Positions 3,942-23,493 of a stretch of 26,304 bases of DNA are shown in pieces. This DNA is from a bacterium UBP18_UBA7526. GTDB taxonomy: Bacteria > UBP18 > UBA7526. The position numbers and the translations under genes were made by a program. The notes beneath the pieces were generated by a model. That model did no database searches and was not told the origin of the DNA. It saw nothing but the letters and a program-made list of their open reading frames with translations. Each line of letters starts with the position of its first letter. The stretch's first letter is position 1. The stretch lies in contig DLMW01000026.1 in the NCBI GenBank assembly GCA_002478245.1, positions 1 through 26,304 on the forward strand, written 5' to 3'.

Positions 3942-4410
3942 AATTCATCAAGCCGCCAGAGGAGATTATTCTCTGAAGGAATTTTGGGAAGGGAGGGACA
4001 CGATAGAGTTTCTTTCTGGTAGTGTTTCTAATCTCCCCTTTACTTAAATCGATCTCCAAAATGTCGTTCTCTTTTGTTTCTCTGACAGCCTCTCTACTCT
4101 CCAGTATGGGTAGACCCATATTGATGCAGTTCCTGAAGAAGATGCGGGCAAAGGAGGAAGCGATGATACAGGAGACACCACAACCCTTTATGGCTAAGGG
4201 AGCGTGCTCCCGGGAACTACCACAGCCGAAGTTCTTTCCGGCAACAATAATGTCCCCGGGCGCTACCCTCCCCGCAAAATTCTTACTCCTTCCTTCCAGA
4301 CAGTGTTTGGCTAACTCTTCAGGATCAGTAGTCACTAGATACTTTGCGGGGATGATCTCATCAGTATTGACATCATCCCCGAACTTATGAACCCTTCCTT
4401 TGAGTCTCAC
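3931..4410 (-). CDS. leuD: 3-isopropylmalate dehydratase small subunit (short type)
   Basis: GDDVNTDEIIPAKYL, GKNFGCGSSREHAP, SFARIFFRNCINMGLP. Confidence 0.95.
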   Translation of the reverse strand: MRLKGRVHKFGDDVNTDEIIPAKYLVTTDPEELAKHCLEGRSKNFAGRVAPGDIIVAGKNFGCGSSREHAPLAIKGCGVSCIIASSFARIFFRNCINMGLPILESREAVRETKENDILEIDLSKGEIRNTTRKKLYRVPPFPKFLQRIISSGGLMNSIQ

Positions 4411-4626
4411 TTAATCGAATCTCTTCTCCTTTAAATGCTTCTCGATCTCATCCCTCATGAGGCTGACAAGCTCCTCATCCGTCTCTTTAATCTTCTTCCA
4501 GATCTTTTGACAGGATGGACAATCACTAGCATCCTCAATGCAGCGGTCATAGCGGACAAGTCCTCTGGACTTTATGGCTATGGCTGCGATCAGGTTGTAG
4601 TTAAGGTTCTTTAACATCCTTCTCAC
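4411..4626 (-). CDS. Small helical protein with CxxC motif, function unknown (start may be ATG 4617)
   Basis: 71 aa, host-like composition, DCPSCQKIW between predicted amphipathic helices; stop abuts the leuD GTG; G-rich SD-like sequence upstream. Confidence 0.75.
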   Translation of the reverse strand: MRRMLKNLNYNLIAAIAIKSRGLVRYDRCIEDASDCPSCQKIWKKIKETDEELVSLMRDEIEKHLKEKRFD

Positions 4627-4639
4627 CCCCTTTGTAATC

Positions 4640-4747
4640 AGTGAACAGTAATAATTGGTTTACGGTGAAAAGCGGTAAACCCCCTTAGAAAACTCAAAGA
4701 GCACGCACCCTTAATTAAAGATATAGGCGAAGTAGGGATAGTAACGC
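4640..4747 (+). repeat. 108-bp dispersed repeat, copy 1
   Basis: Aligns to 8707-8813 with 5 substitutions and one 1-nt indel. Confidence 0.97.
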
Positions 4748-4869
4748 CTAAGAGTAAAACTCTATGAAAAAGGGGTAAACAGTCCCGGATGAGGGACGGG
4801 CAGATTGAATAATAGTGGGGCAAGGAGAACGCACCGCTCAACCGTTAACCTTAAAGTAGCGCAGTTCAC
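4640..4869. other. Inverted-repeat-bounded structured intergenic element, long copy
   Basis: gtgaac (4641-4646) / gttcac (4864-4869) ends; 4657-4676 complementary to 4833-4850; internal hairpins at 4724-4750, 4751-4763 and 4782-4797. Confidence 0.7.
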
Positions 4870-4872
4870 CGA

Positions 4873-6150
4873 CTATTGATTGTGGACTTCATCTGGATGG
4901 GCAATCCTTCCTTTGATGGCGCTGGCAGCAGCTACTGCAGGATTAGAAAGATAGACCTCTGATCTGGGGTGGCCCATCCTGCCCACGAAGTTGCGGTTTG
5001 TGGTGGCCAGAGCCCTCTCTCCCTCTGCCAAGACCCCCATATGGCCACCGAGACAGGGGCCACAGGTAGGGGTGGAGACTACCCCCCCTGCCTCTAAGAA
5101 TATCTCGATCAATCCTTCTTTCACTGCCTGAAGATAGATATTCTGGGTAGCAGGGATAATAATGAGTCTTATATAAGAGGGGATCTTCTTTCCCTTCAAG
5201 ACTTGGGCAGCGATCCTTAAATCCTCCATCCTTCCATTGGTGCAGGAGCCGATGACCACCTGATCTAAAGGGATATCCCCTACCTCACTCACTGGTTGGG
5301 CATTGGAGGGAAGATGAGGGAGGGCAACCTGAGGGGCGATCTTTGAGCAATCGTATTCTCTTATCGCGCAATAGTGGGCATGGGGATCGCTGGTGGGCAG
5401 TGGACAGTGAACAGTGAACAGGGAACAGTGTTTCCTTGCATATTCGAGAGTGATTTTGTCAGGGGCAATGATCCCTGATTTTGCTCCAGCCTCGATGGCC
5501 ATGTTGCACATGGTGAATCTTGAATCCATGGAGAGATGAGAGATTACTTCTCCACTGAACTCCATGGCCTTATATGAGGCGCCATCTACTCCAATATCGC
5601 CAATAGTATAAAGGATGAGGTCTTTTCCGCTTACCCACTTATTTAATTTTCCCCAATAGATGAACTTTATCGTCTCTGGAACCTTGAACCAGAGCCTCCC
5701 AGTAATCATTACCGCTGCTAAGTCTGTCGAGCCCACACCAGTAGAAAAGGCTCCTAAGGCACCATAGGTACAGGTGTGGGAATCGGCACCGATGACCAAG
5801 TCCCCAGGCCTTACCAGGCCCTGCTCAGGCAGAAGAGCGTGCTCTATCCCCATCCTCCCCACATCGAAGTAATACTTGAGATTCTGCTCTTGGGCAAAAT
5901 CCCTTGATATCTTCACCTGTCGGGCTGAAGCAACATCCTTATTAGGGGTGAAGTGGTCAGCAACTAAGACCACTCTCTTATTGTCAAAGACCCTTTTCTT
6001 CCCAGATTTCCTAAACTCCTTTATGGCTAAGGGAGCAGTGATATCATTCCCTAAGGCGATGTCTACCCTGGCCTCGATGAACTCCCCCGGCTCCACTTTT
6101 TTCCTTCCCGCATGAGCCGCCAATATCTTCTCTGTTATGGTAAGACTCAT
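4873..6150 (-). CDS. leuC: 3-isopropylmalate dehydratase large subunit (short type)
   Basis: [49 protein letters not shown]. Confidence 0.95.
5398..5430. repeat. Heptamer tandem array inside leuC
   Basis: cagtgga cagtgaa cagtgaa cagggaa cagtg, translated as [11 protein letters not shown]. Confidence 0.9.
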
Positions 6151-7664
6151 TATCTTCTTCTGTAGATTAAACGATTCAGGGCATTGAGATAGGCCTTGAC
6201 CGAGGCCTCAACGATATCTGTGGAAGCACCATGACCAGTGATGGTCTCTTTTCTGCTCTCTATCTTGACGATGACCTCTCCCAAGGCCTCCTTACCGCCG
6301 GTTACGCCCCTTAGAGCATAGTCCACTAACCTGCACTTTATCTTGGTAATCTTGTCTATGGCTTTATAGCAGGCATCCACCGGTCCATCACCCGTCGCCC
6401 TCTCCTCAAAGAGCTTCCCCTCTCTCTTTATTCTGATGCTTGCCTCTGGAGTAACCTTCGTCCCGCTTCTAACCTCCATATCCTCTAAGGTGAAGGTATC
6501 AGGAATCACATGGATCTCATCCTCAACGATGGCCTCCAGATCTCGATCGGTGACCTCCTTCTTCTTATCTGCCAATTCCTTAAATCTAACAAAGGCCTTA
6601 TTGAGATCCTCTTGAGAGAGCTCGGTATAGCCCAGTTCTTCCAGTCTCTTCCTGAAGGCATGCCTTCCCGAGTGCTTCCCTAAGACTAATTTGGTCTCTT
6701 TTATCCCTACAGATTGGGGAGTCATGATCTCATAGGTAATGGGCTTTGCCAATACCCCATGCTGATGGATCCCTGCCTCATGAGCAAAGGCATTGGCCCC
6801 CACGATGGCCTTGTTGGGTTGAACGGGAATCCCAGTGAGACTACTTACCAATCTTGAAGTCTTATAGATCTCCTTTGTCTTTATCCCGGTTACTTTATTA
6901 AAGATGTCTTTTCTGGTCCTCATGGCCATGACGATCTCCTCTAATGAGGCGTTCCCCGCTCTCTCTCCAATACCGTTTATGGTGCACTCCACCTGGGTAG
7001 CACCGTTCAAGATGGCGGATAGGGAGTTGGCTACTGCTAGGCCTAAGTCATTATGGCAGTGGACGCTAATTACCGCCTGGCCGATATTGGGAACCCCTTC
7101 TCTTATCCCTCTAATTAGCTTCCCGAATTCTACAGGAGTGGCATAGCCTACGGTATCCGGAATATTGACTGTCGTTGCTCCAGCAGCGATTACTGCTTCA
7201 ATTACCTGATGTAAGAATTTGGGCTCGGTCCTTGAGGCATCCTCTGGAGAGAATTCCACATCATCAGTAAGCTTCTTGGCATATTTTACCCCTTCTACAG
7301 CGAGCCTCAAGATCTCCTCCTTTGCCTTCTTCAGCTTATACTTCATGTGGATCTTTGAGGTGGCTAGGAAGACATGGATCCTGGGCTTTTGAGAATACTT
7401 CACCGCATCCCAGGCCCTCTTAATATCCTCCTTCGTTGCCCGTGCCAATCCAGCGATAATAGGACCTTTTACCTGTTGGGCAACGAGCTTTACTGCCTCA
7501 AAATCGCCAGGTGAAGAGATGGGGAAGCCGGCCTCAATGACATCCACCCCTAACTTAGCCAGCTGCCTTGCAATCTCCAACTTCTCCTGGATGTTCAGAC
7601 TCGCCCCTGGGGATTGCTCCCCATCCCTTAAGGTAGTGTCGAATATCAATATTTTCTCAACCAT
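6150..7664 (-). CDS. leuA: 2-isopropylmalate synthase
   Basis: [45 protein letters not shown]; C-terminal regulatory domain with GDGPVDA. Confidence 0.96.
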
Positions 7665-7680
7665 CTTTATTCTCCTTTCG

Positions 7681-7699
7681 AACGCGAATTATTTGCGTT
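7681..7699. repeat. Imperfect palindrome, copy 2 of ACGCGAA-TTA-TTCGCGT
   Basis: aacgcgaa-tta-tttgcgtt overlapping the ilvC stop, just upstream of the leuA SD. Confidence 0.8.
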
Positions 7700-8684
7700 T
7701 TATGAAGGGCATCATGGCCCGCAGTTCCTTTCCCACCTTTTCGATGAGAAGTCCTTTTTCCTTCTCCCTTAATTCATTGAACTTAGGATAACCTGCCTTA
7801 CACTCTGCCATCCATTCCCGGGCAAAGGAGCCATCCTTTACCTCAGATAGTATCTTCTTCATCTCATCCCGAACCGTCTGACTTATAACCCTTTTGCCTC
7901 TGGTCAGGTCGCCATACTCTGCGGTATCTGAGACCGAGTACCTCATCCAGGTCAAGCCCCCCTCATAGATGAGATCAGTGATGAGCTTAAGTTCATGAAG
8001 GCACTCAAAGTAGGCGACCTCTGGCTGGTATCCGGCCTCTACTAGGGTAGCAAAAGCGGCCTTGATGAGTTCGCTCACTCCGCCACAGAGGATGACCTGT
8101 TCCCCGAAGAGGTCGGTCTCCGTCTCTTCAGCGAAGGTGGTCTCCAGAACTCCTGCCCGGGTGCAACCGATCCCTTTAGCATAGGCCAAGGCGATCTCCT
8201 TTGCCCTTCCCGTATAATCCTGCTCGATAGCCACCAAGGCCGGGGTCCCCTCTCCTAGAGTGAACATCCTCCTTACCAAGTGCCCAGGTCCTTTGGGAGC
8301 AACCATGAAGACATCGATATTCTTAGGAGGAAGGATCTCTTTGAACCGGATGTTGAAGCCATGGCTAAAGGCCAGGGCATCCCCTTCCTCCAGGTTGGGC
8401 TCAATATCCTTCTTATAGACCTCTCCCTGGATGGTATCGGGTATCAGGATCTGGATGATGTCTGCTTCCTTTGAGGCTTGCGCACAAGAAACTGGTTTAA
8501 AACCATGCTCTACTGCTAGTTGATAGTTATCCGTTCCTTCTACTTCACTCACAATAATATCCAATCCCGAATCCCTCAGGTTCTGGGCCTGAGCATGGCC
8601 CTGAGAACCATAGCCAATAATGGCAATCCTTCTCCCCTTCAATACCTCTAAATTGGCATCCTTCTCATAATAAACTTTTGCCAT
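7689..8684 (-). CDS. ilvC: Ketol-acid reductoisomerase
   Basis: [41 protein letters not shown]. Confidence 0.97.
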
Positions 8685-8706
8685 CTTTGCGCCTCCCTTT
8701 GGTCGG

Positions 8707-8821
8707 AGTGAACAGTAATAATTGGTTTATGGTGAAAAACGGTAAATCCCCTTAGAAAACTCAAAGAGGAGCACCCTTAATTAAAGATATATGCGAAGTA
8801 GGGATAGTAACGCTGTTCACT
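8707..8821 (+). repeat. 108-bp dispersed repeat, copy 2, closed by a 9-bp inverted repeat
   Basis: 8707-8813 matches 4640-4747; agtgaacag (8707-8715) / ctgttcact (8813-8821), followed by a second unit ctgtcta. Confidence 0.97.
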
Positions 8822-8833
8822 GTCTACCGTGTT

Positions 8834-9316
8834 TCACTTGCTACCCCTGGGTAGGGCGATCCTTCCGGTGCGGCTTAAGGTCTTTAGGCCCAGGGGTCGC
8901 AAAAGGTCTAAGATCGTCTTTATCCTATCCTCTTCTCCTACGATCTCGATGGTTATCGTCTTCTCACCCACATCTGCAATCCTGGCCTCAGGAAAGCTAT
9001 TGACAATCTGTAGGATCTGGGGTTTTGTTCCCTTTGTTAAAGAGACTTTGACTAATAATAGTTCTCTGGTAATGGGCTTCTCACCCACGAAGTCAGCGAC
9101 CTTGATGACGTCGATTAACTTATGGAGCTGTTTCGTTACCTGCTCCAGGATCCTATCATCTCCTTCAACCACTAAGGTCATCCTTGAGGTATCGGGGTTC
9201 TCTGTCTCACCCACTGCCAAACTCTCGATATTGAATCCCCGCGCACTGAATAGCCCAGAGATCCTTGCTAAGACCCCTGGCTTATTCTCTACCAGAACAT
9301 TAATGATATGCTTCAT
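8834..9316 (-). CDS. ilvN: Acetolactate synthase small regulatory subunit
   Basis: VENKPGVLARISGLFSARGFNIESLAVG ACT domain; KQLHKLIDVIKV; RTG. Confidence 0.96.
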   Translation of the reverse strand: MKHIINVLVENKPGVLARISGLFSARGFNIESLAVGETENPDTSRMTLVVEGDDRILEQVTKQLHKLIDVIKVADFVGEKPITRELLLVKVSLTKGTKPQILQIVNSFPEARIADVGEKTITIEIVGEEDRIKTILDLLRPLGLKTLSRTGRIALPRGSK

Positions 9317-9330
9317 TTCTCCCCTCCGGG

Positions 9331-9347
9331 ACGCGAATTATTCGCGT
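9331..9347. repeat. Perfect palindrome ACGCGAA-TTA-TTCGCGT
   Basis: Immediately after the ilvB stop and upstream of the ilvN SD. Confidence 0.85.
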
Positions 9348-11021
9348 TTAAGCCAAGCCTCTGAGCATCTCAGTAAGTGGGGCTCCCGCAGGAACCATGG
9401 GGAAGACATTCTCTTCGGGCTCGATGAGAAAATCGAGAACCACCGGCTTATCGATAGAGATCGCTTTCTTCAAAGCAGGAACGACTTCTTCCTCCTTCTC
9501 CACCTTGATGCCCACTGCTCCGTAAGCCTCGGCCACCTTGACAAAGTCGGGATTCCCGGCCAGAGAGACGGCAGAGTATCTCTTCTTATAGAAGAGCTCC
9601 TGCCACTGTCTGACCAATCCCAGATAACCGTTGTTCATAATGGCTACCTTAACTGGTATCTTATTATGGACGCAGGTAGCCAGTTCCTGGATATTCATCT
9701 GAAAGGAACCATCCCCAGCAATATCAAAGACCATTCTGTCTGGACAGCCTACCTTAGCCCCGATGGAAGCGGGAAAGCCATAGCCCATGGTCCCCAATCC
9801 ACCAGAGGATAGGAAGGTCCGGGGCTTGGTATACTGATAGTACTGGGCAGCCCACATCTGGTTCTGACCCACCTCAGTAGCGATGATGGCCTCTCCCTTG
9901 GTCACCTCATAGATCTTCTCCACAACATACTGAGGCTTCAACTTTCCGTTCCTTTTATAGGTTAGGGGATGGTTCTTCTTCCATTCTCCAATCTGCTTCA
10001 GCCATCCAGATATCGCAGGCTTTTTGACGATCTTATTGAGCTCCCGCAAGACGTTCTTCACATCTCCCACAATGGGGATATCTACCTGGACATTCTTGGC
10101 AATGGCGCTGGGATCGATGTCGATATGAATGATCTTGGCCTCAGGAGCAAACTTATCCAAACTTCCCGTAACCCGATCATCGAAACGGGCGCCGATGGCG
10201 ATGATGAGATCACAGTCCATGATGGCGTAGTTGGCGTACTCTGTTCCGTGCATCCCCAGCATCCCTAAGGATAGGGGAGAGTTTTCAGGGAAAGCACCCA
10301 GGGCCATCAAGGTAGTGGCTACCGGGATACTCGTCTTCTCTACTAACTGGATGAGTTCCTTACTCGCCCCGGATATTATCACCCCTCCTCCGGCATAGAT
10401 AACAGGTCTGGTTGCCTTGGATATCATCTGGACGGCCTTCTTAATCTGTCCCGGATGGCCAAAGTAGGTGGGTTTATATCCGCGGATCTCAACCTCTCTA
10501 GGAAACTCGGCCTCCGTCTCTTTAATCTGGACATCCTTGGGAAGGTCAATCAATACTGGACCAGGACGACCGGTAGAAGCGATATGGAAGGCCTCCTTCA
10601 CTGTCCTTGCCAGGTCCTTAACATCCTTAACCAGGAAGTTATGCTTCGTGATCGGCCTGGTAATTCCTGTAACATCCGCCTCCTGGAAGGCATCGTTCCC
10701 TACCAGATAGGTGGGAACCTGACCAGTGATGGCCACAATGGGAATGGAGTCCATATGGGCAGTAGCGATGCCTGTAGTCAGGTTCGTCGCCCCTGGACCA
10801 GAGGTTGCCATGCAGACCCCTACCCTGCCTGTTGCCCGGGCATAGCCATCCGCCATATGGGCTGCTCCCTGCTCATGCCTGGTAAGGATAAACCTTATCG
10901 GGGCATCATAGAGGACATCGAATACCGGAAGGATGGCTCCTCCAGAGATACCGAATATTACCTCTACCTTCTCCCTTATCAGACTCTCGACTAAGATCTT
11001 GGCGCCGATCATCTTGGCCAT
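9348..11021 (-). CDS. ilvB: Acetolactate synthase large subunit, biosynthetic type
   Basis: [36 protein letters not shown] ThDP motif. Start moved to ATG 11021 because GGAGGAGG lies just upstream. Confidence 0.96.
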
Positions 11022-20893: not shown

Positions 20894-20919
20894 TCCCTTA
20901 GATCTCCTTTTAAGCCCTT

Positions 20920-20944
20920 GGCTGATCCGCCTCTGGCGGAAACC
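20920..20944 (+). repeat. 25-bp REP-like palindromic element, copy A
   Basis: ggctga-tccgcc-tct-ggcgga-aacc; its reverse complement matches 23455-23479 at 24/25. Confidence 0.9.
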
Positions 20945-23454: not shown

Positions 23455-23479
23455 GGTTTCCGCCCGAGGCGGATCAGCC
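23455..23479 (-). repeat. 25-bp REP-like palindromic element, copy B (opposite orientation)
   Basis: ggtt-tccgcc-cga-ggcgga-tcagcc. Confidence 0.9.
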
Positions 23480-23493
23480 TTAAATAACACTAC

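Follow-up and report, generated by a model that had tools for sequence, protein, structure and literature searches.

Gene-less copies of a probable composite palindromic repeat family in the ilv-leu operon of a UBP18 bacterium

Repeat copies in the ilv-leu operon

The DNA analyzed here is a stretch of 26,304 nucleotides (nt) (the window; contig DLMW01000026.1, positions 1 to 26,304 of the forward strand) from assembly GCA_002478245.1 of bacterium UBP18_UBA7526, a metagenome-assembled genome of 1.16 Mb that is 82.6% complete (G000). It was compared with other genomes of the same family (G001 to G005), the completeness of the family genomes compared being 53 to 93%. All long genes of the window were on the minus strand, and ilvD, ilvB, ilvN, ilvC, leuA, leuC, leuD, and leuB were identified with Pfam, giving the minus-strand operon order ilvD-ilvB-ilvN-ilvC-leuA-leuC-(small open reading frame [ORF])-leuD-leuB. 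Two related stretches in this operon are the subject of this study, copy 1 in the gap between leuC and a conserved 68-amino-acid (aa) ORF that precedes leuD and copy 2 in the gap between ilvN and ilvC. An original prediction, made from the letters of the DNA, had described them as a 108-bp element duplicated at 4640 to 4747 and 8707 to 8813 and had proposed a structured RNA or single-stranded DNA (ssDNA) element antisense to the operon. Both stretches are very probably gene-less copies of a selfish composite palindromic repeat family of this lineage; the kind is ordinary, resembling repetitive extragenic palindromic (REP) sequences, miniature inverted-repeat transposable elements (MITEs), and Neisseria intergenic mosaic elements (NIMEs), and the family is new.

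The duplication itself was real. In a MAFFT alignment, 4640 to 4747 and 8707 to 8813 were 94% identical, with five substitutions and one 1-nt indel, and copy 1 used as a BLAST query against G000 recovered copy 2 at 94% identity (E = 2.7e-42). The gene order placed both copies in intergenic gaps of one operon, and their ends were built of heptamer units, as had been claimed; the predicted length of 108 bp did not stand, since full repeat units continued to 4870 in copy 1 and to 8821 in copy 2, with tips AGTGAACAG and CTGTTCACT. Copy 1 was 231 bp long, occupied all of the gap up to the Shine-Dalgarno sequence of the small ORF, and ended 2 bases from the leuC stop codon (4873 to 4875). Copy 2 had about 115 bp of its interior deleted and retained both tips as a perfect 9-nt inverted repeat (8707 to 8715 and 8813 to 8821). 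The next start codon downstream of each copy, that of ilvC or that of the small ORF/leuD, was 22 to 23 nt away.

Copy 1 (4640 to 4870, plus strand; nhmmer family match at 4631 to 4792) was a full-length composite palindromic element. Its left tip, AGTGAAC-AGTAATA-ATT (4640 to 4656, plus strand), was a degenerate heptamer array common to 13 left ends of G000 and also present in copies of G001 and G002. The adjoining hairpin of the original prediction, GGTTTAC / GGTGAAAAGC / GGTAAAC(C) (4657 to 4681, plus strand), formed the center of the heptamer-array palindrome, that is, the point at which the array turns from GGTTTAC to GGTAAAC units. It was followed by a decayed nested mini-hairpin of cross-phylum distribution (4681 to 4780, plus strand; alignment with six intact copies), which consisted of a left arm, CCCCCTTAGAAA, with a G-to-C change at 4684, an interior of about 80 nt, and a right arm from which 11 nt were lost, GGGG-TAAAC remaining (4772 to 4780). 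A small hairpin, GTCCC..GGGAC, and a further module (CAGATTGAATAATAGTGGGGCAAG...) occupied 4782 to 4840 (plus strand) and were shared with copies on contigs C67, C16, C62, and C72 and on contig C180 of G001. The right arm (4842 to 4870, plus strand; inverted repeat I3) formed an imperfect inverted repeat with the left arm and was homologous to the family right end, CCGTTAACCTTAAGTAAYACnGWTCAC, from which it differed by one indel and three mismatches; the termini of copy 1 were paired in folds of both strands.

Copy 2 (8707 to 8821, plus strand; 94% identity over 108 nt) had the form of an internal-deletion derivative of a copy-1-like element, in which the nested hairpin is cut to its left half and the later modules are missing. 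Its center hairpin, GGTTTAT..GGTAAAT-C (8724 to 8748, plus strand), contained two plus-strand G-T wobbles. An array-like extension of the right arm (8822 to 8837, plus strand), identified from an inverted repeat at 8732 to 8744 and 8825 to 8837 (92% complementary), overlapped the ilvN stop codon (8834 to 8836). An independent Logan contig (L176), probably from the source run of this hydrocarbon metagenome, covered 6379 to 8736, and the sole difference in 2,358 nt was a C in place of the T at 8730. Logan contigs ended 30 nt inside the copies and none spanned either element, as is expected of a repeat.

Outside the element, the conserved 68-aa ORF between copy 1 and leuD (4414 to 4617, minus strand) contained a C..CPSC motif, and its stop codon abutted the leuD start codon. 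Homologues were found upstream of leuD in G002 and G004, preceded in relatives by a DUF6812 ORF, and the 68-aa ORF had no match in Pfam or NCBIfam.

A dispersed mosaic repeat family and its nested elements

BLAST of copy 1 against G000 produced 20 matches in all, 18 of them additional partial matches spread over 15 other contigs, and an nhmmer profile built from five copies produced 23 matches (E < 0.01) on many contigs; the two stretches are therefore members of a family rather than a two-copy locus. A strict search recovered 13 left ends in G000, 4 of which were paired with a right end at 86 to 300 bp. Copies 1 and 2 were mutually closest (94%), with every other copy at 86% identity or less (BLAST). 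Parts of the element were matched in all five of the other family genomes and in none of 35 more distant genomes.

The family was a mosaic whose parts were in register. A left tip, AGTGAWC-RGTAATAATT, was followed by a run of GGTNNAC-type heptamers centered on GGTTTAC..GGTAAAC, an optional 30-nt double hairpin, a hairpin with arms CCCCGTTAGAAA / TTTCTAACGGGG around about 80 nt, the small GTCCC..GGGAC hairpin, the further module, and the right end given above, which is an imperfect inverse of the left end. The center, GGTTTAC-GGTGAAAAAC-GGTAAAC, and the overall architecture were also found in the sister-genus genomes G001 and G002. In other copies, the spacer between the center units was 1 to about 60 nt long and could hold heptamers or the 30-nt double hairpin. 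Heptamer arrays of at least three units numbered about 20 in G000, versus 0 in shuffled sequences. As in MITEs, the copies were dispersed, noncoding, and variable in length and had terminal inverted repeats, perfect over 9 nt at the tips of copy 2 and imperfect over arms of about 27 nt in copy 1.

Arrays of this type also occurred in coding sequence. In leuC (5399 to 5430), about 4.5 tandem heptamers of the CAGTGAA type were translated in frame. On contig C34 of G000, a five-unit GGTNNAC array (2245 to 2280) was apparently located inside an IspG-like coding sequence, about 270 nt upstream of a broken gene for a four-helix-bundle protein (23S rRNA intervening sequence [IVS] protein). The G000 assembly contained 248 runs of N (scaffold gaps) of 2 to 386 nt, several of them directly beside repeat copies, and repeat families are a main cause of its fragmentation.

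The nested mini-hairpin had a far wider distribution. A 19-mer covering the junction of GGTAAAC with the nested left arm, GGTAAACCCCGTTAGAAAA, was found at 101 loci in many phyla of a collection with one genome per species, versus about 4 expected by chance, a figure estimated from the collection size. The loci belonged to Omnitrophota, Syntrophaceae, Nitrospirota, Planctomycetota, Nitrospinota, groups of the candidate phyla radiation (CPR), and others. The anatomy of the mini-hairpin was constant: arms forming a 12-bp inverted repeat enclosed a loop of 3 to about 140 nt, and (G)TAAA flanked the hairpin on both sides as a direct repeat, replaced in odd copies by others, such as GTCATA. The mini-hairpin of Planctomycetota and CPR was often located within Gly-Phe-Thr codons (GGTTTACC) of prepilin leaders. 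Variation in the right arm over 93 loci showed no strand bias (11 top-strand wobbles, 16 A-C mismatches, and 26 transversions; 1:2 expected). A search for an autonomous form revealed no gene-enclosing arms within 450 nt in five family genomes or in 8-kb cross-phylum loci, and a literature search on the hairpin arm strings returned no relevant paper.

The 30-nt double hairpin (CCGCCAGAGGCGG plus CAGCC..GGCTG) was present in nine copies in G000, usually inside heptamer arrays. In G002 and G004, it was inserted in frame into the heptamer array of leuC, where it adds QPKADPPLAD, and it was absent from the leuC array of G000; G005 had unrelated sequence at the array position. This presence and absence in leuC indicate that heptamer arrays act as insertion sites. 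Within the window, the double hairpin occurred at 20912 to 20942 (minus strand) and 23458 to 23490 (plus strand), inverted and about 2.5 kb apart. Elements of 60 to 66 nt with arms CCCGTTAGAAGT / ACTTCTAACGGG and two small inner hairpins were observed at 22 places in G001 and at 8 places in G005 (such as L177, L182, and L179); the inner-hairpin stems varied between copies yet stayed paired, giving a three-way-junction shape with many apparent compensatory changes.

The window element was absent from the orthologous junctions of relatives, which held other inserts or none. Between ilvN and ilvC of G002 (L154; contig C45) and G003 (L153; contig C101), a gene for a 127-aa GxxExxY protein (TIGR04256, 6e-32; PDDEXK_3, 1e-30) was enclosed by inverted CACGGATTAG-type arrays, with its start codon in the last unit of the left array. 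At the same junction, G004 had inverted ACGCAGAT-type arrays around a hairpin, and the G001 contig ended 14 nt upstream of ilvC. The inserts of G000, G002, and G003 differed but shared an end point, just before a conserved CCGAC-Shine-Dalgarno stretch. Between leuC and leuD, no insert was present in G005, where the stop codon abuts the start codon, and one or two small ORFs with other arrays were present in G001, G002, and G004. Because the units of the ilvN/ilvC cassettes in G002 and G003 differ from the window arms, direct descent of the window element from such cassettes is a candidate relationship only.

Center hairpin variation and the RNA readings

The original prediction had rested on strand-specific covariation in the center hairpin, whose 25 nt carried three of the five substitutions (4663/8730, C/T; 4672/8739, G/A; 4680/8747, C/T). 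By base identity, all three left G-C, A-T, or G-T pairs on the plus strand and A-C mismatches on the minus strand, so this part of the observation was correct; the C at 8730 in the independent contig, however, means that one of the three changes is polymorphic or assembly dependent rather than fixed. Folded as DNA, the copy 1 hairpin had a free energy of -5.8 kcal/mol on the plus strand (z = -2.3) and -4.1 kcal/mol on the minus strand. The copy 2 hairpin reached -1.3 kcal/mol on the plus strand (z = -0.05), no better than shuffled sequences, and did not form on the minus strand. When the whole element was folded, the structure of minimum energy lacked the local hairpin, the left arm of which (GGTTTACGG) paired instead with the far end of the element.

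Across family copies, the 7-bp center stem contained five top-strand G-T wobbles (two in copy 2 and one each in the copies on C80, C27, and C18) and no A-C mismatch, and transversion mismatches broke the stem in two family copies. The binomial probability of the 5:0 ratio was about 0.03 if the five wobbles are taken as independent, and three of the five were the same GGTTTAT variant; with a small sample of non-independent events, the bias is suggestive only. With a copy 2 z score of about 0, a polymorphic 8730, and copies broken by transversions, the covariation does not support an RNA, and the best account of the three "compensating" substitutions is that they are transitions accompanying the decay of a copy, not the result of selection for an RNA fold.

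A plus-strand structured small RNA or cis-antisense RNA acting against the ilv-leu mRNA, which was the main idea of the original prediction, is hardly credible. The plus-strand pairing preserved by the three substitutions and the local plus-strand hairpin of copy 1 (z = -2.3) would be consistent with it, but the family copies occurred in both orientations to genes; among the 23 family matches, in gaps between codirectional genes, about 8 were opposite to the genes and about 12 in the same direction, as counted with a crude codon-usage gene caller that reproduces the genes of the window, several cases being checked by eye (Shine-Dalgarno sequence and start codon). No sigma-70 promoter-like or intrinsic-terminator-like site was seen in or beside either copy in a scan of 4400 to 9000, the center of the palindrome was variable, and no RNA run was found to hold the locus. 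Applied to seven copies of the nested module, RNAalifold recovered a single stem, the 12-bp closing stem, whose pairs were invariant and free of double changes for both strands, and it found no conserved structure in the interior of about 80 nt, again for both strands; in the window, this closing stem was lost in both copies, through the 11 missing nt of the right arm in copy 1 and the missing right half in copy 2. No Rfam model matched the window at its gathering score, in agreement with the earlier statement that no known RNA family could be recognized, and nothing relevant was matched at E ≤ 1 in eight loci with related hairpins.

Folds of the whole element as RNA were at least as good for the minus strand, the mRNA sense (copy 1, -65.5 kcal/mol, z = -3.4), as for the plus strand (-60.2 kcal/mol, z = -2.2). 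This fold and the distance of 22 to 23 nt between both copies and a start codon would fit a sense-strand cis-regulatory or processing element of the mRNA (a leader, an attenuator, or an RNase site) about 22 nt ahead of the ilvC and small ORF/leuD starts. Such an element is nevertheless very improbable, although marginally less so than an antisense RNA: other copies flank unrelated genes, also in the other orientation; both junctions exist in relatives without the element, with leuC abutting leuD in G005; and no T-box, leader, or riboswitch model was matched. The spacing to the start codon is expected whenever an insertion is tolerated in the space that separates a stop codon from the following Shine-Dalgarno sequence.

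Candidate enzymes, mode of spread, and known systems

Single-domain GIY-YIG ORFs of 77 to 103 aa, flanked by ACCCCG-type inverted repeats, were found in G001, G002, G004, and G005, and with a locus on contig C80 of G000 included, small GIY-YIG genes were present in all five genomes searched. The C80 locus (9100 to 9460; L172) contained a GIY-YIG ORF of about 80 aa, the middle of which fell in a 161-nt scaffold gap; TTTAC-G-C8-ATTAGAGA was located before this ORF, and three degenerate CTAACGGGG-like motifs came after it. Bracketed in this way by degenerate arms of the CCCCGTTAGAAA class, the locus is possibly a gene-bearing relative of the mini-hairpin element. The closest solved relatives of the small GIY-YIG proteins were UPF0213 proteins, and NCBIfam produced only sub-threshold matches to group I intron endonucleases. 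Four PDDEXK_3 matches were found in G000, three of the four genes being adjoined by short-unit arrays of yet other sequences, as were four matches to the 23S-rRNA-IVS-protein (four-helix-bundle) family. A literature search on GxxExxY/PDDEXK_3 returned catalogue mentions only. The small proteins share the architecture of the Ssn clade of single-domain GIY-YIG nucleases, which act on hairpin repeats in ssDNA form only and cleave just one of the two strands (PMC11893778); the SRM search pattern from that work had 3 matches in G000, versus 3 to 5 in shuffled sequences, and none in the window copies.

In the best explanation, the basic element of 86 to 300 bp consists of two imperfect inverted arms of tandem GGTNNAC-type heptamers around GGTTTAC..GGTGAAAAAC..GGTAAAC, with smaller hairpin elements nested into the heptamer arrays; in the window copies, the nested element is the decayed, pan-phylum CCCCGTTAGAAA / TTTCTAACGGGG mini-hairpin beside the GGTAAAC unit. 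Copy 2 was probably derived from an element like copy 1 through recent copying together with an internal deletion that kept both termini. The membership in a family, the nesting, the occurrence in both orientations, the absence from the junctions of relatives, and the lack of conservation of an RNA type were observed directly, whereas the mode of spread is inferred by analogy and from co-occurrence in the lineage. The family would spread as DNA, probably via hairpins in ssDNA, and the elements would be carried passively on the operon mRNA. Small stand-alone nucleases that co-occur in the lineage may supply the enzymes, with GxxExxY PD-(D/E)XK proteins encoded between inverted short-unit arrays and single-domain GIY-YIG proteins of about 80 to 100 aa with ACCCCG-type hairpins as the candidates. 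Use of the center hairpin itself as an ssDNA element is possible.

Several observations weigh against a selfish repeat family. No consistent direct repeat that could be a target-site duplication was found at the outer ends of six complete copies, and no Y1/RAYT transposase (PF01797) was found in any of six family genomes, in a search whose controls matched. No gene-bearing partner with the arms of the window element was found in G000, which is 82.6% complete and has 248 gaps, or in eight loci of relatives, among genomes that are 53 to 93% complete. The 5:0 wobble bias, finally, could mean a strand-specific constraint on the center hairpin, which selfish DNA alone does not require; use of the hairpin as ssDNA would explain it.

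Other explanations at the DNA level were also considered. A simple duplication of a local segment, or gene conversion between sites of the operon, without a mobile element, would fit two copies 4 kb apart that are 94% identical to each other and 86% or less to any others, but copy 2 keeps both tips without the interior, the signature of element-defined ends, and many more copies occur on other contigs and in other genera; this explanation is extremely unlikely. A functional role is somewhat better placed, if still improbable: the heptamer hairpin and the nested hairpin would be ssDNA sites, one strand of which is bound or cut by an Ssn-like GIY-YIG protein, as for NTS/dRS3 in Neisseria, and the repeats would not be purely selfish but would influence recombination or DNA uptake. 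The 77- to 103-aa single-domain GIY-YIG genes with flanking ACCCCG-type hairpins in all five genomes searched, the strand- and ssDNA-specific cutting by Ssn enzymes (PMC11893778), the five top-strand G-T wobbles versus no A-C mismatches in the family center hairpins, and the greater stability of the copy 1 hairpin on the plus strand than on the minus strand are consistent with this role. The lack of SRM enrichment in G000 and the absence of the pattern from the window copies, the variation without strand bias of the nested hairpin over 93 loci, and the loss of its right arm in both window copies argue against it, and with UPF0213 proteins as the best solved relatives, the Ssn clade (cd10448) is only a candidate assignment for the GIY-YIG proteins. 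A selfish composite repeat family thus remains the preferred explanation, and it may tentatively be extended: the heptamer-array palindromes and the nested CCCCGTTAGAAA mini-hairpin could be substrates that propagate GxxExxY and single-domain GIY-YIG genes, forming undescribed, ultra-small homing-type cassettes whose gene-less derivatives spread as ssDNA hairpins read on one strand. This extension is doubtful but would explain the tolerance of top-strand G-T pairs.

A covarying "antisense RNA" is, on this interpretation, a decaying copy of a selfish repeat and should be annotated neither as an RNA gene nor as an operon regulator. The junctions of an essential biosynthetic operon hold array-ended palindromic inserts that vary between genera, one of them with a nuclease gene, and the arrays in turn harbor smaller hairpin elements, in leuC even within the reading frame. 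Should the small nucleases indeed be linked to the repeats, GxxExxY proteins and many single-domain GIY-YIG proteins, which form large families with no assigned role, would gain a testable function, and the repeat-fragmented assemblies of such uncultured lineages would be explained in part.

Modular MITEs include the Correia elements of Neisseria and the BOX and RUP elements of pneumococcus. The present family resembles them in its terminal inverted repeats, variable noncoding interior, internal-deletion derivatives, and cotranscription with neighboring genes, and differs in that no outer target-site duplication was seen and no cognate DDE transposase with matching ends was identified. Rickettsia palindromic elements are small palindromic repeats tolerated in frame inside genes, as are, here, the heptamer array of leuC and, in G002 and G004, the 30-nt double hairpin that it contains; unlike these, both window copies are intergenic, and there is no sequence relation. 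Cyanobacteria reportedly contain short tandemly repeated repetitive (STRR) heptamer sequences and, in Nostoc, very small dispersed repeats (SDRs), as Mazel in 1990 and Elhai in 2008 are said to have described. Intergenic tandem heptanucleotide arrays and 20- to 30-nt hairpins that insert into arrays and into each other are common to those repeats and the present family, but the phylum and the unit sequences are other ones, and the arrays described here are inverted pairs that bound discrete elements.

REP sequences, bacterial interspersed mosaic elements, and REPINs, the last associated with RAYT proteins of the Y1/HUH type (Bertels and Rainey 2011, PMC3116915), are likewise intergenic, palindromic, mosaic, and gene-less, occur within operons in both orientations, and are thought to act as ssDNA hairpins; the present family differs in its heptamer-array arms, in having no GTAG-type REP head, and in that Y1_Tnp/RAYT proteins were found in 0 of 6 family genomes. 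The Neisseria intergenic mosaic elements and dRS3-NTS with SsnA (Chenal et al. 2025, PMC11893778) are similar in their multicopy, intergenic short hairpins with non-palindromic flanks and in the presence, in the same genomes, of small single-domain GIY-YIG genes flanked by such hairpins, and strand-specific recognition of ssDNA would fit the top-strand G-T bias seen here. In contrast, the window repeat does not match the SRM pattern, and its arms are tandem heptamer arrays in nested composites; in the present lineage, the pairing of nuclease and repeat is a candidate one. Within the lineage, GxxExxY array-ended cassettes have units that differ from the window arms, with a full cassette at the ilvN/ilvC junction of G002 and G003, the junction that copy 2 occupies in the window, and others in G000.

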